DNA from: Nitrososphaeraceae archaeon
Lineage (GTDB): Archaea > Thermoproteota > Nitrososphaeria > Nitrososphaerales > Nitrososphaeraceae
DNA length: 64,000 bases
Assembly: GCA_035297365.1 (NCBI GenBank)
Contig: DATGZA010000091.1
Location: forward strand, 1 to 64,000
Direction of reading: 5' to 3'
In this document: positions 20,903 to 38,632 of the stretch, piece by piece
Layout of the letters: the number at the start of each line of letters is the position of its first letter
How positions within the stretch are numbered: position 1 is the first letter of the stretch
Made by a program: the position numbers and the translations under genes
Notes under the pieces: model-generated
Database searches by the model: none
Seen by the model: only the letters and a program-made list of their open reading frames with translations
What the model was told of the DNA's origin: nothing

Positions 20903-23689
20903 TCATCTATTTTCAATTATTACTCGTTTTATTCTTGCATCTTCTGGATTGATTGGTTGGTTGTTTTGATTAGTTTTTTGGGATGCTATCTTTTCAACCG
21001 TATCTATTCCTTCAATTACTCTTCCAAAAACTGTATATTGGTTGTCTAGAAATTGAGAATCTCTTGTGACTATGAAGAATTGAGAACCCGCGCTATTGGG
21101 ATCAGAAGTTCTTGCCATTGATAATATCCCTTTCTTATGGGGTATGTCATTAAATTCGGCGTTTATCGTAAAGTTGGGTCCTCCTGTTCCCCACTTCTCT
21201 CTTCCTGTTTCATTATTCTTTGTGCTAGGATCTCCAGCTTGAATTACAAAATCATTAACTATCCTATGGAAAACAACACCGTCGTAGAAGCCACTCTTTG
21301 AGAGCTTGATGAAATTTTCCACATGTTTTGGTGCTGCCTTAGGGAAAAATTCTAGTGTGATATTCCCCTGTGTTGTTTCAAGAATTGCAATATTTGGTGA
21401 CGGTGTCATATCTGCCTTTATCATGACCTCAGAGTTTCCTTTTGTATTATTTGATTCTTTGTCTACGTTGTTTTTACCAATGTTAGACTGTTCGATTGAA
21501 ACCGGCTTTGGTATATAATCTTTATTTACCTGATACAATAATACTCCAAAAACAATGTCGTCTTTGTTATTTTCAAAACTTGGCGATGAATAAACAAGTC
21601 TTAATGGTTGATCATTTGCGCCATTAATTGGATACTTAACATCCTTCACATTGATAGCAATAGTTCCTGACGAATAATCTGGCTGTAAATTGGCTAACAT
21701 ACCGTTATTAACAGACGCATATGATACAGGTGTGAATGGAGTCATTTTTCCTAGTAAGGTATTATTCCAAAAGTTTGAATTTGGGGTGAAACCATCGTCT
21801 TGAACATAATCTTTTTCATTAAATCCACCTATTCTCATGAACCATTGTTTTTTGCTTTCGTCTCCACCGCTTCCAAGGGTATAGAAGGCGTTACCGTCAG
21901 GCCCTTGATGTCTGTCTGCAACGATATATACTAATATATAATCCGCCTCGAGATCTTTAGCGATGGCTATTCCAGTTTCTGGGTCACTCATAAGCATTTT
22001 TGCGATGGTTTGTATCCTTGTCTGATTAATAGTGGCATTATCTGCCAATGTCGTTCTATTTCCGAGAGTCGTAATCCAATAACCGTAATCCCACCACGAA
22101 GCAATGACTGAATCCTTAGGTGTGTTATTAGATATCCAATCCAACGCATCCGTCCAGTCATCAACTTGAATCCTAAATCCTGTTGCGCCATTAGCAATAG
22201 AAGGCGGAATATCTGCTGAACTTATCCAGTTGAAATTTCTTGGATAAATGATACCACCAGTATCTAGTAATGGAATGGAAACCAAAAAAATGAGTACTAC
22301 TACATAGGATACCTTTACTAACGATTTTACTTGAGGTGAAATCTTTCCTTGCCTAACACTCTTTTTGAATTCCTTTTCGCTTAACTTTCCTTGGCTGGCT
22401 ACTTTGTATTGAAGAATACTTCTTGTTATCTCATAAATTCCAATTGACGCGAGCATGACTATTGAAATTGAAGAATAAACCATTAACCTTGCAAAAGTAG
22501 CACTTACATACAGTCCTGTAATACCTATTATTAGTGCAAATATTGTCATGTCATTTCTCTTGGAGAACGCAACCAACACTCCAAACCCAGCAAAAAATAA
22601 CAGAATAGAATAATCAGTAAAATAATCTACTACAGTGGGCGTGGAGTGTTCTGCAACGGATTCTACAAGCGGAATTTGAGATGATAAAAATGGATTTATT
22701 GCATTTAGATATCTAAATGACGATGGCTGATAAGCTCCAGCAGCAACAATTACTACGGCTAGAGATATGAATATTGCCAAGCTTACAACAAGATTCCGAG
22801 TAATTTTTGATTGTTTACTTTTTAACCTGATTATAGATCCGATCACACAAAATACAGCACCCACAATTAATGCTATACCAGGGAGTCCTATAACAAAAGA
22901 TAATCCTGGTCGAGGAAACACTCCCGCTGCGATTAAGGTAGCAATAGTAAATAATACCACCGCAGATACAATTGTTTTTGAATCTTTTCTAATAAACGGT
23001 AACGCAAAGAAAAAGATAGCTAATGGTATGCTAAAATATTGTATCCCTCCCCATGAAGCATTAGCCAATCCCAAAATCATTCCAGCTCCTACTACTTTTC
23101 CTATTGTTATTCGAAGATTCTTTTCCTTTATTGCAGAGAGAAAAAGATAAATTGATAAGATTCCGAGGAATAATCCCAAAGGTTCTGATTTGAACCAACC
23201 TAAATTCCCTCTCTGAATTATTGCTGGCATAAACGCAAATAACAAACTTGCAAACATTCCAGCTGTAGTACTACTGATAATTCTTACAAATGCAAAAATA
23301 ACTATTGTAGTAAGAGAACCAATCACTACTGGGAACATTATTACAAAATCAAGCAATGATGCCCCAAAACCAAATACCTTGTATAGTACTGCTGCTGTGA
23401 GGTGAAGCCCAACTTGTGAAGATTTTGGAACATCTCTGCCTTCTGGATACCAGGACATGTTATCGTGCCAGTGAAGATATTCAGCAAATCCGTTGTCCAC
23501 TATGTATTTTGTAGCTCTATAATCAAAATAAGGGTCAAATTCATTTAGTACGAAACCGTACTTGATTGGATATGATCTTATTATAAAAGCACTTGAAAAA
23601 GCAATTATCAAAACTGCGATTACAAGTAGATGTTTCGCCCTAAAATTAAAGGAGTTTACATTGAATAAAACTTTATTTCCTTCTAACAC
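20903..23689 (-). CDS. aglB: oligosaccharyltransferase AglB (STT3) with C-terminal cyclophilin PPIase domain
   Basis: EFDPYFDYR, many TM segments, SVAEH, SWWDYG (22082-22096), DNAT; C-terminal FHRIVNDFVIQAGDP...SMART...SAGSQFFI...YTVFGRV. Confidence 0.92.
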   Translation of the reverse strand: MLEGNKVLFNVNSFNFRAKHLLVIAVLIIAFSSAFIIRSYPIKYGFVLNEFDPYFDYRATKYIVDNGFAEYLHWHDNMSWYPEGRDVPKSSQVGLHLTAAVLYKVFGFGASLLDFVIMFPVVIGSLTTIVIFAFVRIISSTTAGMFASLLFAFMPAIIQRGNLGWFKSEPLGLFLGILSIYLFLSAIKEKNLRITIGKVVGAGMILGLANASWGGIQYFSIPLAIFFFALPFIRKDSKTIVSAVVLFTIATLIAAGVFPRPGLSFVIGLPGIALIVGAVFCVIGSIIRLKSKQSKITRNLVVSLAIFISLAVVIVAAGAYQPSSFRYLNAINPFLSSQIPLVESVAEHSTPTVVDYFTDYSILLFFAGFGVLVAFSKRNDMTIFALIIGITGLYVSATFARLMVYSSISIVMLASIGIYEITRSILQYKVASQGKLSEKEFKKSVRQGKISPQVKSLVKVSYVVVLIFLVSIPLLDTGGIIYPRNFNWISSADIPPSIANGATGFRIQVDDWTDALDWISNNTPKDSVIASWWDYGYWITTLGNRTTLADNATINQTRIQTIAKMLMSDPETGIAIAKDLEADYILVYIVADRHQGPDGNAFYTLGSGGDESKKQWFMRIGGFNEKDYVQDDGFTPNSNFWNNTLLGKMTPFTPVSYASVNNGMLANLQPDYSSGTIAINVKDVKYPINGANDQPLRLVYSSPSFENNKDDIVFGVLLYQVNKDYIPKPVSIEQSNIGKNNVDKESNNTKGNSEVMIKADMTPSPNIAILETTQGNITLEFFPKAAPKHVENFIKLSKSGFYDGVVFHRIVNDFVIQAGDPSTKNNETGREKWGTGGPNFTINAEFNDIPHKKGILSMARTSDPNSAGSQFFIVTRDSQFLDNQYTVFGRVIEGIDTVEKIASQKTNQNNQPINPEDARIKRVIIENR

Positions 23690-24252: not shown

Positions 24253-25197
24253 TTATCTATACAATGATGCATAAAAGAAAGGTAATAAAGTTGTAATTTC
24301 TCCATGAACTGTTACTTGTTTTGCATTTACGTTTACCTTGTTCCATGATATTGCTTCCCTCACTTCAGCTCCACTTAGACTTCCGTCCCACTCATTGGCG
24401 GTAGTAACATATACAGCGTAATCAAGACCATCCCTAAATTGGTTCCACCACAATGTGTGATGTTTTGTTATTCCTCCTCCTAGCATCAAAGCACCTGTCT
24501 TCTTTGCATCGAATACAAGATCCGAAATTCTCGATTGGTCTTTCAATAAATTTAGTACAAGATCCTTGTGTTGTTGGTAAAATAGCCATATTTGGCTTCC
24601 AACAGCGCCGTCAACCAAACCAGGGACAATCACAGGAATCTTATTTTTATGTGCCCAATATAAAATAGAATTATCGTCTAATTTGCTACCAATATAATCT
24701 ACAATTTCATGACCCGAAAATTCTTTATGTTTAGCATAATATTCAGAAAGAAAATGTTGAACTTTATTTTCTATTAATGGTCCATAATTTTTATTTGGAA
24801 TAAATACGTTTCCCAATCTATGTATATTTCGTTTCTTCAAATAACTGTCATCAATATTAAATTCTCCTGCATAATATTTTCCAAAGGTTTTAGCAATATC
24901 ATGATCTAAAGCACCGCATGTAGTTATTATACAATCAAACATCTTTCTTTTTATCATATCTTTTATTATGCCTCTTGTTCCGGTGGAAATAATAGCGCCA
25001 ACAAAGGATAAAAAACGTGTACATTGATTGTCATCTATCATTTTCCGTGTAATATTTATCGCCTTAGTTAGATTGGTTGATTCAAATCCACCGGATTGTG
25101 ACATTTGACTAATTATTTCCTTCAAATCATTTTTTTTAATTTCATAATCTATTATGTCGTAATTTTTAATGCTTTTACCCTTTTCATTATCTATCAT
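24253..25197 (-). CDS. dys: deoxyhypusine synthase
   Basis: GGF, ITTCGALDHD, IHRLGN, DGAVG, GGGITKHH, DGSLSGA, EAISWNK (active-site Lys). Confidence 0.92.
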   Translation of the reverse strand: MIDNEKGKSIKNYDIIDYEIKKNDLKEIISQMSQSGGFESTNLTKAINITRKMIDDNQCTRFLSFVGAIISTGTRGIIKDMIKRKMFDCIITTCGALDHDIAKTFGKYYAGEFNIDDSYLKKRNIHRLGNVFIPNKNYGPLIENKVQHFLSEYYAKHKEFSGHEIVDYIGSKLDDNSILYWAHKNKIPVIVPGLVDGAVGSQIWLFYQQHKDLVLNLLKDQSRISDLVFDAKKTGALMLGGGITKHHTLWWNQFRDGLDYAVYVTTANEWDGSLSGAEVREAISWNKVNVNAKQVTVHGEITTLLPFFYASLYR

Positions 25198-25294: not shown

Positions 25295-26374
25295 TTGTAT
25301 AATAAACATTCGTTTAAGGGTAAAAAAATAGATCCTCCAAAAATTTCTCCAAACATGTCTATATCAGATCTTATTTCTTTCTACAGCTCTACTGGCTTTA
25401 ATGCTAGAAGATTAGCTGAAGCAGCGGAAATGTTCGAGAAAATGATAGATTCTGATGCTACTGTCTGTCTGACAATTTCTGGAGCAATGTCACCAATTGG
25501 TTTAGGAGGTTGTATTTCTACTCTTATAGAAAAGGGTTATGTAGATTGGATTATTACTACCGGAGCAAATGCATATCATGATCTCCACTTCGCATATGGT
25601 CTCCCTGTTCGCCAGGGTCACTTTGATGTTGACGATGATATCTTGTATTCCAAGCAGATTGTTAGAATATATGATGTATACATAAAAGAAATAGAAACAC
25701 TCCAAAAGCAAGATGATATCATTCAAAATGAAATCGCAAAAATTAATGTAGAAGACTCTACTTCATCGTTGTCTTCATCTGATATTTCTTTTTATTTAGG
25801 AAAAGGAGCCTCTAACAATTCTCATTTTCCAGAAAAGTCGTTTATGGTCTCAGCTTATAATAATAATGTTCCAGTGTATATTCCCGCAATAACTGATTCA
25901 TCTATAGGAATGAACATGCTTCCATTACTATTTGAGTCAAAATTACCTAACTATAATCTTGTTTCGGATATTGCAGAATCAGCAGCAATTTTGTGGAAAT
26001 CCAAATTATCTGGAGGTATTGAATTAGGCGGAGGTGTTCCAAAAAATTTCTTTCAACAAACTGGTCCAACACTGTATCAAATTTTAAAGATTCAAGAAGG
26101 TGGACACGATTATGTCATACAATTGACAGACGCGAGACCTGATACTGGGGGTCTTTCCGGAGCAACTATCCAAGAAGGAAAAAGCTGGGGAAAAATAAAA
26201 TCATCTCACACGGGTAACGTAATAGTATATGGTGATTCTTCTGTATATTTTCCAATACTCTGTTCATACGTTCTATCCGAATGCCAACAAAGAAAACCAA
26301 AACAGCTGTACAATTTAAAAAATCAGTATGTAAGAGAAATGAAATCTGAATATCTTAAAAGAAAGTCTGTATAA
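25295..26374 (+). CDS. deoxyhypusine synthase-like protein (SpeY/homospermidine biosynthesis type)
   Basis: ITTGANAYHDLHFA, RIYDV, DSSIG, GGGVPKNF, DARPDTGGLSGAT, EGKSWGK. Confidence 0.85.
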   Translation: MYNKHSFKGKKIDPPKISPNMSISDLISFYSSTGFNARRLAEAAEMFEKMIDSDATVCLTISGAMSPIGLGGCISTLIEKGYVDWIITTGANAYHDLHFAYGLPVRQGHFDVDDDILYSKQIVRIYDVYIKEIETLQKQDDIIQNEIAKINVEDSTSSLSSSDISFYLGKGASNNSHFPEKSFMVSAYNNNVPVYIPAITDSSIGMNMLPLLFESKLPNYNLVSDIAESAAILWKSKLSGGIELGGGVPKNFFQQTGPTLYQILKIQEGGHDYVIQLTDARPDTGGLSGATIQEGKSWGKIKSSHTGNVIVYGDSSVYFPILCSYVLSECQQRKPKQLYNLKNQYVREMKSEYLKRKSV

Positions 26375-31361: not shown

Positions 31362-32897
31362 ATGAATTTTTTAGTCGTCTTCTTTTTTTTGACAATCTTT
31401 GTGGGATTGTATATCGGTGCTCCTATAGATGAAATACAATTTGTTTATTCACAACAAATCAATGAAGATAATCCTGGAGATTCCTTTGATAGACCAGTAT
31501 CAGTTAAAATTACATCTCACTCGGACGGGGAGAAAGTACCTGTTGGAAAGTTGACTATTTCAGGGATATCAAGTGACGACTCGGACAGAAATTGTTTAGT
31601 ATATGTAGATTGGAATAACAAGAAACCCTTTCAGCAAGTTCGAGCCTCTGGTCCTGGCGGAGTAGATGATTTTTCTGAATGGTTTTTTACTTATGATTCA
31701 AATTATCACCAAATAATGGAAGGAAACAATGATCTTACCTCCAAGATAATGTGTGTAGATGATAATGCTCAGTCCGGAACAAAATGGTACTCAATAAATT
31801 TGATAGGAATTCCGAACCCTTCTATGGTTGAATCCCTCCCAAGGAATAACACTGTGAAAATGCCAGATCAACCCTTTCAAAATATTATTCCGGGTTTTAA
31901 CCCTAATCCTGAAAACATAACAGGACAAAACAATTTACCAAATCCAAATCTTCCATCAGTCAAAGCAGGTTTACAACCCTATCAGAATTCAGATGGAAAT
32001 GATTCTATATATAAAGAAAATAGTGAAATCGAATCAATATCTCAAAACAATACTTCTATTCTAGAAACAAATATGACGAATTTCCAGAATATTCAAAACA
32101 ACTTCAAAAATGTAAATAATGATTCTGGGATTACTATGATTGATCCCACTAATGACCAAATAACTGTTGAGGAAAATTTAAATAATTCCTCCATAAATAC
32201 AACTAATCTCAATACTCCATCTATTGTAAAAAACACAAAGAGGGATAATAATTTGAATTTAACTTCTGAAAAAAGAACAAATGAAGTGTTATCTGACAAA
32301 TTCAACGTAATCCTTTCTTTACCTGATAACATTGTTTTAGGTAATGCATATACCTTAGAAATTTCAGTAATTAATGATGGTTCCTTGCCGATACACGATG
32401 CTATAATATCTGGTGAGATATCTAACATTGATAGCGTAACATATGACAAAATAAAATTTTTTGGGAAGACAGATATCGACGGTTCCTACAAATTTCCATT
32501 AGAGATTAACGAACTTTTTCCAATAGGAGAATATAGTATTAAAGTTTTAGCTACAAAACTTGGATCTCCAGACAGTATTGTTTCTAAATCGTTTACAGTA
32601 TCCGATAATATTATATCATCTAATAGTCAAGACATACCTATAGGAGGTAACGCTACAAATAAAGTTAAAAGTAATACTTCTATCGATTCTTTGCAACAAT
32701 CATATGAAATTCTTAATGATCAGGATAAAATCGATTCATTAAATAATTCTAGTGCAACTCTACCGTTTAAGTCGGGGAATTCTCCATCGATGGACAATTT
32801 CAAACATCCACCAACTTTTGAACAGCCACAAGAAGCCCAGAATCCCTCTTCATCTGTTGAAACACCTTCGTTTAGTTTACCATCACTTTTTCCTTGA
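31362..32897 (+). CDS. secreted/surface protein with Ig-like domains and Asn-rich linkers
   Basis: signal peptide; N-terminal 'VKITSHSDG...ISGISSD...W' Ig-like domain; many N-x-S/T sequons; Pro/Ser tail. Confidence 0.7.
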   Translation: MNFLVVFFFLTIFVGLYIGAPIDEIQFVYSQQINEDNPGDSFDRPVSVKITSHSDGEKVPVGKLTISGISSDDSDRNCLVYVDWNNKKPFQQVRASGPGGVDDFSEWFFTYDSNYHQIMEGNNDLTSKIMCVDDNAQSGTKWYSINLIGIPNPSMVESLPRNNTVKMPDQPFQNIIPGFNPNPENITGQNNLPNPNLPSVKAGLQPYQNSDGNDSIYKENSEIESISQNNTSILETNMTNFQNIQNNFKNVNNDSGITMIDPTNDQITVEENLNNSSINTTNLNTPSIVKNTKRDNNLNLTSEKRTNEVLSDKFNVILSLPDNIVLGNAYTLEISVINDGSLPIHDAIISGEISNIDSVTYDKIKFFGKTDIDGSYKFPLEINELFPIGEYSIKVLATKLGSPDSIVSKSFTVSDNIISSNSQDIPIGGNATNKVKSNTSIDSLQQSYEILNDQDKIDSLNNSSATLPFKSGNSPSMDNFKHPPTFEQPQEAQNPSSSVETPSFSLPSLFP

Positions 32898-33673: not shown

Positions 33674-33959
33674 CTTGGTTAATGAAATTTCCTGGTCGAG
33701 ATATTAATATTGTCACTGAATTTTTTTTCAAATATAGCAAATATTAATTTCAGTTCATTTGTTATTTAAAATTAGATTCAGATCCATTAATATTAAAATT
33801 CCTTCAGATTAGAGGTTTGGAATTTTGGTTATTTAGGAATACGATAGAAAAAAATCATATATTTTTTTTTATTTAAATCTTATATCCAAATCGACTCGTC
33901 AAGTTTATTATTGGAATATTAGATGATAGGCATATTGAACTTTTAATCCATCACATTAT

Positions 33960-35108
33960 ATGCATATTTCTGAAATTTTTTACATGACGTATTATTGGTC
34001 GTATTCCTTATTGTTGGTTGCTATTATGGTTTCGATAATAGGATTAGGCAATATTGGCTCGGCTATACCACCAGTCGGAGCACAAAATAATGAGGAAGGA
34101 AATCCCGTTTATCCTCACCCTGTTCTTCACAAGATTGAGATGTCTGTGCAGAAAATTGAGAAACCGGGTGATGATTTGTTTGGTTATCAGCTTGATAAAC
34201 ATGAAATGTTCGATCCAAAAACTGGTGTATTTTTGAATGATATTACAGATCGATATACAAAAGGACCCACCATCCCTGGACCAACATTAATTTTTGAAGA
34301 AGGTGATTCTGTTGAATTAACTTTAACTAATCCTGGTAAGTCAATGAACGGAATATGTAACACTAATCCATCACCAGAGAATACAGGTGCACTTGGTAGG
34401 GTAAGTATTCACGTGCATGGAATTCATTATTCTATAGCAAGTGATGGCACTTTAGGAATTCTTAATGGCTTAAGAGACGAAGGTGTTTGCCCCGGAGAAT
34501 CAATAACATATCATTACACCGCTGGTCCCGGAACAGCTGGTACATGGCCTTATCATGATCATGCACTTGGTCTAAATCCTGCAGGAATTTATATTGATGG
34601 TTCTGAAACATTAGGATTGTTTGGTAATCTTGTAATTGAGAGCCATACTGGAAAAACTGTGGCCTTGGTTAACGGAGTACCAACTAAGGTGAACATAGCC
34701 GATATTGCTAAAGATGTCTTCTGCTATGTTACCGATGATGCTTTTTGGTGTGACGAAATAGATTACAAGAATAACGCCATTCGAACAGCATTATGGGAAA
34801 ATCCAACTATCGGTGCTAAAGATGGTGACTTGATAAGATTCCATTTATATGGAATGGGTACTGATTTTCATATCTTTTCATTAACAGGGTATGAATGGCT
34901 TGAGCCTGGAACAGCGCAGATAATCAAAGATAAAAAATTCGGACCTCTCGAAAACCATGTTTTCACTATTCAGGCCAAAAATGGTATTGCTGAATATAGG
35001 GACACTATAACATCCCATCTTCTATCGGGAATGAAAGGATCGTTTAAGGTAGATAGTGTTGGAAAAAGTGTTGCTGGAAAATCACCATTGCAAGGAGTTG
35101 TAAATTAA
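33960..35108 (+). CDS. secreted two-domain multicopper-oxidase-like protein; domain-1 His ligands intact, domain-2 ligands degenerate
   Basis: signal/TM, TIPGPTL, SIHVHG (34410), GTWPYHDH (34554), GLFG; domain 2 reads FHIFSLTG and YRDTITSH...GM. Confidence 0.8.
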   Translation: MHISEIFYMTYYWSYSLLLVAIMVSIIGLGNIGSAIPPVGAQNNEEGNPVYPHPVLHKIEMSVQKIEKPGDDLFGYQLDKHEMFDPKTGVFLNDITDRYTKGPTIPGPTLIFEEGDSVELTLTNPGKSMNGICNTNPSPENTGALGRVSIHVHGIHYSIASDGTLGILNGLRDEGVCPGESITYHYTAGPGTAGTWPYHDHALGLNPAGIYIDGSETLGLFGNLVIESHTGKTVALVNGVPTKVNIADIAKDVFCYVTDDAFWCDEIDYKNNAIRTALWENPTIGAKDGDLIRFHLYGMGTDFHIFSLTGYEWLEPGTAQIIKDKKFGPLENHVFTIQAKNGIAEYRDTITSHLLSGMKGSFKVDSVGKSVAGKSPLQGVVN

Positions 35109-35110
35109 AG

Positions 35111-38100
35111 ATGAACAAATTAAAAAATAATATCATCATGATTTTATTTGCAGTGATACTGCTGTCCTCTACATTAACAATTGGGACACAAAATAATGTA
35201 AACAAACTTGACATAATGGATGGAAAAGGAAATACGGGTCAAATAAAAATTGGTGGGACACATCCTATAATACAGATTGCTGAAGCAACTAGCGAAGAAA
35301 AGATGAAAGACGAGATGGGATACCATGTTCCTTTCAAGAACACAAACCAAGATTCTGAAATAAAATACTATGATGATAAAAAATCATTTCAGGATAATAT
35401 TGAATCTAATTCTGAAAATGTCATAATTCATGAGGTAACTATCGAATCAAAGGAACTGCCAAACGGACAATATGGTTACATTATGAAAAAACATTTAGTC
35501 AGGGACGAAGACTCAGTGACTGATTTAACATCTAGGTATCCTGATTTTCCTACCATCCCTGGTCCTACATTAGAAATTCACGAAGGGGATTTGCTGATCC
35601 TCACTTCGATAGATCAGAACGGGTCCCAAAAAGTACAGCAAATAAAAGCAAAATCACCTGGAACTTTCGAGTATTATGGTGAGAATTTTAGAACTTTAGG
35701 ATTATTTGGTGCTATAATTGTTGATCCATATGATAAAGTTCCAGCACAGTTAAACGGCAAAATTGTATCAGTTGATCTAAGAGATCTAGAGAAACAATAT
35801 GTTCTGTTCATGGTGGGTTCTACTTTTTGGGGTCAAGAGATTGATTCCAAGCACAATCAAAAACCGTTATGGACAAATCCTACATTAGGAGCAGATTTGA
35901 ATCAGTTGGTCCGGTTCCATGTGTTAGGGGCCTCACATCAACATACCTTCCACCTTCATGCTCACAGATGGCTGGATCCGGGAACAGCAAACATTATTGA
36001 TACAAAATTGATTTCTCCATATCAGAGTCACTCCTTCATAGTTGAAGCAGGCGACAAAGTAGGAATTGGCAATTGGCAATATCACTGTCATGTATTTGCT
36101 CACATGGAAGCTGGAATGATGGGTACATTTAAGGTAGGGCCTGTTGGGAGTTTCACCAAAAGTATACCTGGTGCGTCTCCACTTGATCCAGGACCAACCG
36201 AACAAGGCAACTTCATAACATTTTCTATAACAGATGATCCAGGAAGATACTTCAAGAACATAGGCGGAGAAATAAAAATAAAAGACGAAAAAGGAGAACT
36301 TGTAGCATTAAAAGATACAACAGAATCATTTGGAGTAGTAGAGAAAGGGGGAACTGTACACTTTATAATGGACGATACTAATGCTGTACATACTATTACC
36401 AGTCTTTTATGGCCGTCAGAAGCAAACAATATGCCTATGCAAACTATAAGCAGTCATATCGGGAAAGTAAGTTCTAACCAGAAGATCAACCAGATATCAT
36501 TACCTCCACACATGCCATTCGATCAAATTACTGCATATTCTGGAGGTGGCATAGTAAAACTTGAAACGCCTGGATTGTATGTTTTTACTTGCAAAATACA
36601 TCCGTATATGTTTGCAGGAGTAATAGCAGATGACCCTGAAACGACTGGTTTTGATTTAGGAGATGAGCTTGAATTAAGCACGGGAGATAAACTAGCCTCT
36701 AGTAATGACCTCTCTTTAGCATTATTAAGGACATTCTTCATTGCGAATAATCCCTCTAACTGGAAGGATTATAGTACAAATAGTGCTTCAGACTTGAAGG
36801 ATTCTAGTGTTGCCAATTCAGAATGGACACCTAAATTTCCTCATATTCCAGTAAAAACGGACCAAAAGGAAGTATTCTATCTTGATGAAGGGCTTATTAC
36901 TTCGATGAAAGAAACAACTACTCTCGGAAATATACAAGAACAAATTACCCCACTAGAGACAATTCAAAATCCGTCTATCCCAGGAGTTGGTGAAGTATGG
37001 ATAGATACAGAATTTGAAGAAACAGCTAACAAGACAAAACCAGGAACAGCAACCAAGGTGAATGTCGAGAATTGGAAGGTAGAAAGAAAGGTTTCATTGC
37101 CTCAAATCAATATGAATCATCCACATAATATGTGGAGTGACTCCAATCAACAAGTGATGTATCAAACTCAATGGTTTGATAATCGATTGACTGCATTTGA
37201 CAGGAATACTGGGACACTACTTGATGATATCAAGGTTGGGGATGCACCGTCACATGTTATGACAAATCCGACAAATGACCGACTCTATGTTGTGTTAAGC
37301 GGTGAACAGGGAGTCGCAGAAGTTGATTTTGACAAGCAAAATAATAAATTCAATATATTGAGAATAATACCCATGCAAGATTCTGGTCAACTCCCAACAC
37401 ATCCTCACGGACATTGGATTACTCCAAATGGAGAGAAGATGATTACTCCAAATCATTTCACGAATGATGCAACTATCTTTGATTTCACCGAAAATCAAGG
37501 AAAAGGGGGAATTCAATCCAGAGTAAACACAGGCATGATGCCAATTGCAACTGGCATGATGCCAGACGGAAAGCAAGCTTACGTGTCTAATTTGCTTTCT
37601 AGTACAGTTGATCTTGTAGATATAGAATCTGGTGAGGTAATCAAGACTATAAATCTTGCAGAATCAGGTGATTTCTGGCCAATTCAAACCCCAGTTAGTC
37701 CAAACGGTCAATACGTAGTTACAGCAAATACATTGTCAGGAACTATAGCAGTAATAGATACAGATGCAGATGGCAATGGTATTTACGATGATCCCGAGTT
37801 AGTAACCAGCCTGCCATGTGATCCAGGATGTCACGGGGTTAACTTTGGTGCAAAGAATGGAGTCGACACTAACAGAACGAGCGAAGATGACGGATACTAT
37901 GCATATGTTTCTAGCAAATTCTCGAATAGAATGATAGTCGTAGACGCAGATCCTAACAATGATGGTAATGTAACAGACGCAAAAATCGCTGGTTCCGTAT
38001 TATTAACTGGAAATTATTCAAGTACTGGAACGCCAGAATTTGAAGCCGATGACGAAATCGTAAAATTTGATGGTATGGGTGGACAAGGGGTATATGCAGT

Positions 38101-38632
38101 TCCAAATGTATACCCAGGATGGGTAGAAAAATTAGATTCAACATTTGATAACCAATTAGCAGATTTGCAGAGAGATCCGATAGGAACATTCAAAGATTTT
38201 CATACCCTACCTATTTCGACCTTAACCAATAGCTCAAAAGATGTAGTAAGCCAAGAATCATTGCAGTCTCAATACAACGAGGATAGAGAAATCATGTTGA
38301 AACAACAAGAAATAGAGAAACAACTACAACAACAACAAGAACAACAAAAAGATACTAGAATATTGAATTCTGGTAATGCAATAATGCAACAAAAACAAGG
38401 ACATCCTGTACAACAACAACTACAACAACAACTACAACAACAACTACAACAACAACTACAACAACAACTACAACAACAACAACTACAACAACAACTACAA
38501 CAACAACAACAACTACAACAACAAGAATCAAAATCTCCGGCCATAATTAAATCTCATTCTAAGATAGACTCTAGCCTAAACATCCTTCAACCTAACAACA
38601 TCTTGGGAATGATACCAATTCCTTATCCATAA
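35111..38632 (+). CDS. secreted multidomain copper protein: MCO-like domains + cupredoxin + YVTN-like beta-propeller + polyQ tail
   Basis: HTFHLHAH (35942), WQYHCHVFAHMEAGM (36083), HTITS...CKIHPYM (36389-36610), propeller blades with HPHN/PSH/HPHGH/CHG, QQQL repeats. Confidence 0.8.
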   Translation: MNKLKNNIIMILFAVILLSSTLTIGTQNNVNKLDIMDGKGNTGQIKIGGTHPIIQIAEATSEEKMKDEMGYHVPFKNTNQDSEIKYYDDKKSFQDNIESNSENVIIHEVTIESKELPNGQYGYIMKKHLVRDEDSVTDLTSRYPDFPTIPGPTLEIHEGDLLILTSIDQNGSQKVQQIKAKSPGTFEYYGENFRTLGLFGAIIVDPYDKVPAQLNGKIVSVDLRDLEKQYVLFMVGSTFWGQEIDSKHNQKPLWTNPTLGADLNQLVRFHVLGASHQHTFHLHAHRWLDPGTANIIDTKLISPYQSHSFIVEAGDKVGIGNWQYHCHVFAHMEAGMMGTFKVGPVGSFTKSIPGASPLDPGPTEQGNFITFSITDDPGRYFKNIGGEIKIKDEKGELVALKDTTESFGVVEKGGTVHFIMDDTNAVHTITSLLWPSEANNMPMQTISSHIGKVSSNQKINQISLPPHMPFDQITAYSGGGIVKLETPGLYVFTCKIHPYMFAGVIADDPETTGFDLGDELELSTGDKLASSNDLSLALLRTFFIANNPSNWKDYSTNSASDLKDSSVANSEWTPKFPHIPVKTDQKEVFYLDEGLITSMKETTTLGNIQEQITPLETIQNPSIPGVGEVWIDTEFEETANKTKPGTATKVNVENWKVERKVSLPQINMNHPHNMWSDSNQQVMYQTQWFDNRLTAFDRNTGTLLDDIKVGDAPSHVMTNPTNDRLYVVLSGEQGVAEVDFDKQNNKFNILRIIPMQDSGQLPTHPHGHWITPNGEKMITPNHFTNDATIFDFTENQGKGGIQSRVNTGMMPIATGMMPDGKQAYVSNLLSSTVDLVDIESGEVIKTINLAESGDFWPIQTPVSPNGQYVVTANTLSGTIAVIDTDADGNGIYDDPELVTSLPCDPGCHGVNFGAKNGVDTNRTSEDDGYYAYVSSKFSNRMIVVDADPNNDGNVTDAKIAGSVLLTGNYSSTGTPEFEADDEIVKFDGMGGQGVYAVPNVYPGWVEKLDSTFDNQLADLQRDPIGTFKDFHTLPISTLTNSSKDVVSQESLQSQYNEDREIMLKQQEIEKQLQQQQEQQKDTRILNSGNAIMQQKQGHPVQQQLQQQLQQQLQQQLQQQLQQQQLQQQLQQQQQLQQQESKSPAIIKSHSKIDSSLNILQPNNILGMIPIPYP
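38411..38524 (+). repeat. coding CAA/CTA microsatellite (CAACAACAACTA)n encoding (QQQL)n
   Basis: about 114 bp made only of CAA and CTA codons. Confidence 0.95.

Follow-up and report, generated by a model that had tools for sequence, protein, structure and literature searches.

Two adjacent archaeal genes with reciprocal losses of copper ligands probably encode one multicopper oxidase whose trinuclear cluster is divided between two subunits

Can two neighboring genes, each lacking half of the ligands of a laccase active site, encode a single oxidase between them? This question is raised by a locus in a 64,000-nucleotide stretch of DNA, termed the window hereafter, which corresponds to contig C91 of a 97%-complete, 2.52-Mb genome of a Nitrososphaeraceae archaeon. 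Gene A (33960..35108) encodes a secreted or anchored SLAC-like protein of 382 amino acids (aa) with two cupredoxin domains and gene B (35111..38632) a protein of 1173 aa; both genes, and all of their features given below, lie on the forward strand. The genome carries archaeal amoA (392 bits) and the nearest database relatives of A and B are labeled Nitrososphaeraceae or Ca. Nitrosocosmicus by their sources, which together identify the organism as an ammonia-oxidizing archaeon (AOA). In small laccases of the SLAC type, the trinuclear copper cluster lies at the subunit interface. On the strength of reciprocal ligand losses, a fixed A-then-B gene order, mirrored phylogenetic trees, undivided relatives that act as controls and a predicted complex of the two chains, A and B are probably two subunits of one obligate hetero-oligomeric SLAC-type multicopper oxidase (MCO), with the trinuclear cluster split between two polypeptides.

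Gene A scores 35.4 bits against PF07732, and its likelier start is Met9 at 33984 because the orthologues begin at the equivalent residue. The protein matches the small laccase 3t9w (E = 1.2e-9), and 4uah_A aligns over residues 140–376, which include both domains. In domain 1, SIHVHGIHY falls on the HPHG motif of the small laccases and WPYHDH on their WHYHDH. The first of these motifs, H151-V-H153 (34410..34418), aligns with HxHG of 3t9w and is invariant in 29 sequences; the second, H199-D200-H201 (34554..34562), aligns with WxYHDH of 3t9w and is likewise invariant. Domain 2 is degenerate at both of its motif positions. Where SLAC has HTFHLHGH, A has HIFSLTGY (34869..34892), the longer stretch FHIFSLTGYEW standing at the position of laccase HTFHLHGHRW, and the two cluster His are gone. 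At the fourth motif (34995..35033), YRDTITSHLLSGM faces YHCHVQSHSDMGM of SLAC, with EYRDT at the YHCH position, and both cluster His are lost together with the Cys of the type 1 (T1) copper site. The T1 site is thereby absent from A, Cys being replaced by an Asp that is invariant across 29 archaeal A sequences and by Asp or Asn in bacterial A. A conserved metal site of His, Asp, His and Met in this domain was considered and rejected, as bacterial A has Asp or Asn and does not keep the His. By its aligned motifs, A supplies four domain-1 cluster His and no others, namely H151, H153, H199 and H201.

The mirror image is found in the N-terminal part of B, which is paralogous to A (BLASTP 29% identity, E = 1e-33) with a gap of ~48 aa in domain 1 of B. 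Gene B is preceded by AAGGAG 15 nt upstream of its ATG. A hydrophobic helix (residues 1–25, helical over 2–25 in the model) and a low-complexity spacer to about residue 100 (together 35111..35410) lead into the folded region, residues 14–101 having a predicted local distance difference test (pLDDT) below 50. Domain 1 (~residues 102–205; 35414..35725) is a shortened cupredoxin without any cluster His, in which the HxH strand is deleted and HDH has become FEYYGEN; a sequence search of the PDB returned no significant match to it. Bacterial B keeps the former HxH strand, now VSFTAPG or AGFKVPG; it is archaeal B that has deleted it. Domain 2 (~residues 206–345; 35726..36145) possesses the full domain-2 ligand set, with Pfam Cu-oxidase_2 (PF07731) at residues 245–344, an E value of 1.3e-17 to Ssl1/SLAC and intact HTFHLHAHRW and YHCHVFAHMEAGM motifs. 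H278-T-F-H281-L-H283-A-H285 (35942..35965) provides one T1 His and two cluster His, and H325-C326-H327-x3-H331-x4-M336 (36083..36118) provides the Cys-His bridge, T1 ligands and two cluster His. Both motifs are invariant, as are all four residues of the T1 site (H278, C326, H331 and M336). By its aligned motifs, B supplies the four domain-2 His alone (H281, H283, H325 and H327) and the sole T1 site of the two MCO modules.

An AlphaFold2 model of the whole of B, built on an 18-sequence alignment (mean pLDDT 61.3), resolves folded blocks at ~102–360 (two cupredoxins, the first short), 365–510 (a third cupredoxin) and 672–979 (a propeller), with residues 1–101, much of 553–671 and 977–1173 disordered. 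Compared with two-domain laccases, the model gives template-modeling scores (TM, target) of 0.51–0.59. An earlier note, made from the window's letters, had described two paralogous two-cupredoxin proteins encoded 2 nt apart, A with only its domain-1 motifs and B with only those of domain 2. The spacing (A stop codon TAA at 35106–35108, B ATG at 35111), the paralogy and both halves of the mirrored loss are confirmed, the latter by the alignment of A to 3t9w and by the small-laccase match of B, of the order of 1e-17. The note's proposal that neither protein alone can build the cluster and that A domain 1 plus B domain 2 give eight His and a T1 site is supported by the strict conservation of the losses and of the gene order, by the mirrored trees, by single-chain relatives that have no neighboring A and by the structural prediction, all described below. 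Its two-cupredoxin description is right for A; B is a 1173-aa multidomain protein that is SLAC-like only over ~residues 102–345, and the end that had been placed at 36150 cuts gene B after about one third.

How widely is this arrangement kept? Among 61 related genomes, A-like matches occur in 23 of the 24 others that belong to the same genus; a second genus adds one genome with a match, and a third adds one with a weak match. Outside the family, one genome encodes, at locus L031, an ordinary 300-aa two-domain MCO with all four motifs. Many archaeal genomes hold two paralogous pairs, with A either 55–94% or 43–50% identical to that of the window, and wherever the contig permits, A is directly followed by a B of ~950–1430 aa built on the same domain plan. 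When 30 A sequences, 30 B sequences and L031 are aligned with MAFFT, every A keeps HxHG and W-x-x-HDH and none has HxxHxH or HCH; every B is without either domain-1 motif and has both domain-2 motifs. A database search with B residues 100–520 returned 413 proteins, of which the best 120 were examined. None of these has a domain-1 motif, 119 have HxFHxH and all 120 have HCH, and the names listed include Nitrosovibrio sp. Nv17 and Nitrosospira sp.

The bacterial names are echoed by a scan of one genome per species, in which 470 of 503 pattern matches encode a relative and the best 80 loci form our census. Thirty-five of these loci are from Nitrososphaerales and 39 from Nitrosomonadaceae (29 Nitrosomonas, 8 Nitrosospira and 2 Nitrosovibrio, including N. 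europaea ATCC 25978, N. communis, N. marina and N. multiformis); three are from unclassified Bacteria, one is from a Burkholderiales metagenome-assembled genome (MAG), one from a Chitinophagaceae MAG on a 2.8-kb contig, and one is unlabeled. Among the best 80 loci, the pair is thus almost entirely restricted to ammonia oxidizers of two domains of life. A full-length A lies directly upstream on the same strand of 71 of the 82 B open reading frames (ORFs). The other 11 comprise eight at a contig edge or with a fragment of A only, one with a 248-aa A, one that is the second piece of a split B, and a single true orphan (L052, identical to L033), so that B without A, which the earlier note had named as telling against a heteromer if common, is rare. 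Both domain-1 motifs are present in 71 of the 72 A ORFs and a domain-2 motif in none; both domain-2 motifs are present in 81 of the 82 B ORFs and a domain-1 motif in none. As the reciprocal pattern is the same in all 30 A and all 30 B aligned and again in the locus census, it goes beyond chance.

Within the archaeal order, distribution is patchy. An order-wide search with B (E ≤ 1e-30; 401 genomes, including the unpublished G280) found matches in 44 genomes, with 28 of 111 in family f1, 14 of 112 in family f13, the only genome of family f17, and none of the 176 genomes in the other 17 families. As to conservation in Nitrososphaerales, which the earlier note had proposed to check, the reciprocal losses are strictly kept where the pair occurs; in most of the families sampled, the pair was not found. 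The pair is also no archaeal specialty, being common to β-proteobacterial ammonia oxidizers. Since it was not found in most of the Nitrososphaerales families sampled and is shared with bacteria, it cannot be the universal missing hydroxylamine/NO enzyme of AOA. A core role in these organisms is ruled out, most of the AOA families sampled having no match to B.

The MCO modules were placed in a tree of 81 modules and 323 columns (IQ-TREE quick search, rooted on L031), in which the 40 A and the 40 B rows form one clade each, with support of 98 each in the Shimodaira–Hasegawa-like approximate likelihood ratio test (SH-aLRT). Archaea and Bacteria occur in both clades in mirrored subclades, the matching ones being archaeal type 1, archaeal type 2, Nitrosospira/Nitrosovibrio and several Nitrosomonas groups. 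This mirroring implies that the module had been duplicated, and its ligands reciprocally lost, before the pair spread, and that A and B have traveled together. In two Nitrosomonas MAGs (L113 and L121), two pairs stand in tandem as A-B-A-B on one strand and fall in different Nitrosomonas subclades, in the A tree and in the B tree.

A natural set of controls is furnished by relatives in which the enzyme is not divided. The longer relatives of A are 37 proteins of 900–1339 aa (P0391–P0427), every one of which is a single chain that joins a full set of four MCO motifs to the CxxHxxM cupredoxin and the propeller motif. At ten loci of family f13 (L133–L140, L143 and L144), nine have a single ORF with four motifs, cupredoxin and propeller, and the tenth is broken; no A-like ORF was found in the flanks of these ten loci as fetched. 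Overall, the undivided single-chain form spans 880–1339 aa. Two loci of another f1 genus (L141 and L142) encode a protein of 642–648 aa with cupredoxin and propeller only. Three forms exist, a complete single chain, a split A+B and a form without the MCO part, and A is present exactly where the fused protein lacks the domain-1 His. A second tree with 16 undivided forms again recovered A and B as single clades with support of 99 each; the undivided forms branched near the base as two or three groups, of which one was placed as the sister of A with weak support (82).

We queried the predicted association of the two chains by co-folding A residues 45–382 with B residues 100–365, each with its own alignment, in three runs alongside three controls. 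The interaction prediction score from aligned errors (ipSAE) was 0.90, 0.89 and 0.89 (median 0.89), and 0.02 for the best control; the runs share at least 94% of contacts, with partner pLDDT of at least 90. In calibration, 58 of 80 solved complexes and 2 of 110 mismatched pairs attain the mark that this score passes, counts that are only rough here given the use of own alignments. The predicted interface sets A domain 1 (151–217) and part of A domain 2 (299–332) against B domain 2 (277–339), and the confident residue pairs include A:153–B:281 and A:151–B:283, the His of two HxH motifs. Of the convergence of A1 and B2 His that the earlier note had proposed to look for, the model shows A H151/H153 placed against B H283/H281, and the modeled geometry is that expected for a live cluster. 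The co-fold speaks for a preserved interface, not for binding as such.

Beyond the MCO module, B continues into a third cupredoxin (~residues 365–510; 36203..36640) whose T1 ligands H427, C494, H497 and M500 (CKIHPYM) are invariant. The C-x2-H-x2-M motif occurs in all 120 B-like proteins listed, a spacing that we take to be amicyanin-like; relatives of B match the amicyanin model TIGR02657 weakly, under its cut-off. A linker (residues 511–664; 36641..37102), partly helical in the model and poorly predicted, leads to a seven-bladed YVTN/lactonase-type β-propeller (~residues 665–980; 37103..38050), recognized by PF10282 at residues 666–888 (37.7 bits, cut-off 21.7). Modeled alone on a 48-sequence alignment, the propeller reached a pLDDT of 92.2 and a predicted TM score (pTM) of 0.92. 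Foldseek places it with the archaeal YVTN propeller 1l0q_A (E = 2.2e-18) and 6-phosphogluconolactonases (6nau_A, TM target 0.80), and other top matches are YncE, cytochrome cd1 nitrite reductase and hydrazine synthase β; nitrous-oxide reductase is not among the matches listed, up to rank 50. Assignment to the clade III lactonase-type nitrous-oxide reductases (L-NosZ, NCBIfam NF052460) was rejected: the cut-off is 700 bits, and B reaches 39 bits, its C-terminal part alone 40.7 and the relatives without the MCO part 21–117. ESM Atlas rows labeled nos_propeller score below 0.9 and serve as leads only.

Four His of the propeller, H672 (37124), H715 (37253), H766 (37406) and H908 (37832), are conserved together with N669, N673, W675 and W769 in at least 90% of the sequences of the 48-sequence alignment. 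They occupy the same position, P-x-H-x4-P-[DN]-G, in four blades, which A813 and Q859 take in two others; C903 and C907 are conserved among closer relatives. From this shared blade-repeat position we infer a putative His4 metal site on the propeller axis. A search with B residues 560–1020 among 1.84 billion representatives returned 7784 matches at E ≤ 0.001 and 70 at E ≤ 1e-30, and many of these are proteins of 460–700 aa with a signal peptide, an amicyanin-like cupredoxin and the propeller, and no MCO part. As the T1 cupredoxin always accompanies the propeller, the latter would be a redox-active domain rather than a scaffold. The cupredoxin-propeller family (P0247–P0311; L141 and L142) is widespread, secreted and uncharacterized, occurring in bacteria and one Nitrososphaeraceae genus, and keeps four His equivalent to H672, H715, H766 and H908 at the same blade position. 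Its Atlas clusters are auto-named 'copper oxidase', and Nitrospirota and Pseudomonadota lead the phyla of those few members for which a record exists.

The tail of B is Q-rich and of low complexity (38243..38530, with a CAA/CAG run at 38410..38524), and its length varies between orthologues; a 94%-identical orthologue at L035 has a QQQP-type repeat run of ~240 residues and a total of 1413 aa. The tail closes with a C-terminal motif (38573..38629) ending in LQPNNILGMIPIPYP / NNILGMIPIPYP, which is conserved in the six aligned type-1 archaeal B whose C terminus extends that far. This conserved motif may be a sorting or anchoring signal.

Both genes are represented in RNA. The stretch is held by 20 of the 24 public runs listed, six of those 20 being soil metatranscriptomes, and RNA contigs from four runs cover 34006..38219. 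The A/B junction is bridged by one contig of X15 (34737–35736, 4 differences) and one of X16 (34678–36239, 7 differences), which is compatible with co-transcription of A and B; X15 and X16 belong to one study, contigs cannot prove a single transcript, and the libraries may contain DNA. RNA cover is absent at 33700–33866 and at 38376–38542, the second being a skipped repeat; these gaps carry no meaning either way. The B ORF of L030 is identical to P0180 over 932 residues (100%), a protein whose source names it as Ca. N. franklandus, and a 4Fe-4S ferredoxin ORF lies next to this pair, after B and A. In the available text of PMC12448741, NFRAN_2029 and NFRAN_2030 are among the genes most up-regulated in biofilm, are termed 'MCO3', are clustered with the ferredoxin-family gene NFRAN_2032, and are suggested to act in cell-surface modification in biofilms; that text cites Kerou et al. 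2016 for the MCO lineage scheme that includes 'MCO3'. Because the layout of L030, an adjacent pair plus a ferredoxin, fits NFRAN_2029–2030 plus NFRAN_2032, the A and B of Ca. Nitrosocosmicus franklandus are probably the genes published as "two copies of MCO3", an identification based on gene order. Current annotations read 'multicopper oxidase domain-containing protein' and 'beta-propeller fold lactonase family protein'.

A mechanistic model for the pair can be proposed. One live O2-reducing trinuclear cluster would form wherever domain 1 of A abuts domain 2 of B, and the other interfaces of the ring would be copper-free, as in ceruloplasmin or three-domain laccases. B would contribute a second T1 copper, in the amicyanin-like cupredoxin, and a propeller with four conserved axial His. 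Electrons would most likely enter from a substrate at or near the propeller metal site or at the outer T1, pass through the cupredoxin T1 to the MCO T1, and cross the Cys326-His bridge to the A/B cluster and O2. For this T1-to-T1 relay, Nmar_1354 provides a precedent; the pendant cupredoxin would feed the MCO T1 of B as it does there, and would itself receive electrons from the propeller site or an external donor. The A:B ratio may be that of a closed three-chain ring (A2B or AB2) containing a single live site; an open AB dimer, comparable to a three-domain laccase plus a vestigial domain, is conceivable as well. In evolutionary terms, the ancestor would have been a single chain with a complete MCO, the cupredoxin and the propeller, from which duplication of the MCO module and reciprocal ligand loss would have given A and B before the pair spread among β-proteobacterial ammonia oxidizers and Nitrososphaeraceae.

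Several observations weigh against a divided, obligately heteromeric enzyme. The co-fold was made for the A+B pair alone, and its pass may reflect likeness to solved SLAC homotrimers; in the monomer model of B, the metal loops 285–296 and 329–334 are poorly predicted. The orphan B of genome G012 (contig C14) is a third copy of 1048 aa with HTFHTHAHEW and HCH intact, and no A-like sequence was found in the ~2.5 kb upstream of it in L033 or the 4.6 kb in L052; elsewhere, G012 has two complete A-B pairs. The tight coupling of the genes suggests a 1:1 ratio, which a closed three-chain ring of the SLAC type does not fit. For the C-terminal half, the Foldseek matches are generic propellers only, the putative metal site being read from aligned residues; position 672 is Tyr in one 94%-identical B orthologue; and the existence of cupredoxin-propeller relatives without an MCO part means that this module can work on its own. 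Pull-down, copper-content or activity data for any member of the family were not found in the literature.

These observations bear on three alternatives. B could work without a trinuclear cluster, its MCO-like part being a T1 electron-transfer and oligomerization module and A an independent copper store or chaperone. This would agree with the cupredoxin-propeller relatives, which keep the T1 and the propeller His, and with the incomplete ligand set of either protein alone. We judge it improbable all the same, given that the four cluster His of B domain 2, none of them a T1 ligand, are invariant in Archaea and Bacteria, that the four domain-1 His of A are equally so, that A always adjoins B and co-evolves with it, that the undivided forms keep eight His and are without A, and that the co-fold sets the two groups of His face to face in the model.

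Alternatively, A and B might each pair with other MCOs of the cell (MCO1-, MCO4- or NirK-type) in mixed trimers; the window's genome does hold three more MCO-family ORFs, on contigs C65, C34 and C62, and an orphan B exists in G012. However, searching this genome with A (E ≤ 0.001) returned A itself and two stretches of B and not those ORFs, bacteria and archaea whose MCO complements differ greatly inherit the pair as one unit, and the predicted A–B interface is confident, which leaves such mixed partnerships very improbable. Least can be said for a decaying tandem duplicate, two half-dead laccase genes without a joint function, even though each copy has lost catalytic residues and broken copies do occur (the 248-aa A of L089; a split B or split complete form in L087, L143 and L144). 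Such decay is scarcely credible when none of the retained ligands varies, conservation of the 'dead' domains is good (column identity averages 56% across the A alignment and 45% across the B alignment), the pattern is identical in Nitrosomonas and Nitrososphaeraceae, RNA contigs lie over both genes, and probable orthologues are strongly induced in biofilm, according to the available text of PMC12448741.

If A and B form one oxidase, what might it oxidize? A nitrogen-oxide substrate is attractive because the best 80 loci are nearly restricted to ammonia oxidizers. A fuller reading, which we consider rather unlikely when all of its parts are taken jointly, is that A+B oxidizes hydroxylamine, nitroxyl or NO at an undescribed His4 center of the propeller by way of two T1 coppers; that the two-gene unit was exchanged between β-proteobacterial and Nitrosocosmicus-type ammonia oxidizers, with high-ammonia soil and wastewater as niches common to both groups; and that the pair would be the first natural obligate heteromeric two-domain MCO, a living intermediate between symmetric trimers and asymmetric enzymes such as ceruloplasmin. 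In the literature on nitrifier MCOs, of which Kerou et al. 2016 was not covered, we found neither complementary ligand loss nor a heteromeric two-domain MCO, and, with the supplements of PMC12448741 and PMC7785015 likewise not covered, no mention of sharing of the pair between bacteria and archaea or of the three architectural forms. The MCO tree in Fig. S3 of PMC12448741 and the alignment in Fig. S3 of PMC7785015 possibly bear on novelty.

A split site, if true, would amount to natural subfunctionalization of a metal cluster across a subunit interface, with each paralogue keeping the half-site that the other has lost and with undivided and MCO-less relatives as built-in controls. The pair is present in the tractable Nitrosomonas europaea, and it is fused to an uncharacterized cupredoxin-propeller redox module; probable orthologues of the pair are strongly induced in archaeal biofilm. 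Either 'MCO3' gene expressed singly, as is usual in laccase screening, would then yield an inactive protein.

The surroundings of the pair differ from genome to genome. In the window, its neighbors are a DUF985 cupin, an NHL-repeat protein, a metallophosphoesterase and housekeeping genes, and conserved operon partners were sought and rejected, as none of these neighbors recurs at the N. europaea or N. franklandus loci. In N. europaea ATCC 25978 (L118), the pair stands between a response-regulator/EAL gene and a PepSY_TM gene, beside thyA and folA, and has no neighbor in common with archaeal loci. Two published candidates for the bacterial orthologue were rejected: the available text of PMC7285500 mentions a pan1-type MCO for Nitrosococcus only, and NE1543 sits, in the available text of PMC10781756, in a TonB-receptor operon, unlike the N. 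europaea pair. G+C content reaches 37–39% over 34001..38000, the A/B locus, and is 26–35% in 2-kb windows elsewhere in the window. A σ70 promoter and terminator scan found fewer promoter-like sites than in shuffled sequence, the σ70 model being uninformative for an archaeon. Upstream of the pair, past the opposite-strand DUF985 cupin, 31362..32897 (+) encodes a 511-aa secreted Asn/Ser-rich protein without a Pfam family. Further away, deoxyhypusine synthase is encoded twice, by divergent adjacent paralogues at 24253..25197 (−) and 25295..26374 (+) with PF01916 E values of 9e-108 and 8e-83, and a 928-aa ORF at 20903..23689 (−) fuses an STT3/AglB oligosaccharyltransferase to a C-terminal cyclophilin-type peptidyl-prolyl isomerase domain.

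Among known systems, the small laccases SLAC and Ssl1 (3cg8, 4m3h and 3t9w) are the best sequence and fold matches of both A and B, and the two-cupredoxin plan, the T1 site in domain 2 and the four His motifs are common to them and to the pair. They differ in being homotrimers with eight His per chain and three clusters, whereas here the His are divided and at most one cluster would form per A–B junction; domain 1 of archaeal B is moreover shortened and B has ~800 extra residues. Of the features that define the class, two homologous cupredoxin domains are present and B has its T1 site in domain 2; eight cluster His per chain are lacking from A and B singly, and the two jointly have eight. Among characterized two-domain MCOs, none other than homotrimers was found in the literature.

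The MCO4 protein Nmar_1354 (PDB 9CCK), which oxidizes hydroxylamine to HNO with O2, is likewise a two-domain MCO of an ammonia oxidizer with an extra C-terminal T1 cupredoxin near the MCO T1, the T1 coppers being 13.5 Å apart, and it is the protein for which the cluster of two-domain MCOs is described as lying at the interface, all as given in the available text of PMC11761707. It differs, by that text, in that a single chain holds all of the ligands and a propeller is absent, and what is called its 'heterotrimer' combines copies of one chain that either have or lack the dangling domain. B was not assigned to the MCO4 lineage, for the extra cupredoxin is present but the ligand set is incomplete and a propeller is added; of the 78 PDB matches to B, the 60 listed do not include the Nmar_1354 entry. 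'MCO3' of Ca. Nitrosocosmicus franklandianus (NFRAN_2029/NFRAN_2030) is, as at L030, an adjacent pair beside a ferredoxin-family gene, and is treated in the available text of PMC12448741 as two copies of one MCO type, with missing ligands or a heteromer unmentioned there. Closest in build are the uncharacterized undivided MCO-cupredoxin-propeller proteins, which are 30–41% identical to A over the MCO part and share the domain order and the cupredoxin and propeller motifs of the pair; they differ in carrying four MCO motifs in one chain and in having no adjoining A gene. Ceruloplasmin and the three-domain laccases have one trinuclear cluster, at one interface among pseudo-equivalent cupredoxin domains, and leave the others cluster-free. 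Their asymmetry is built into one fused chain, whereas that of A and B would arise from two separate paralogous chains.

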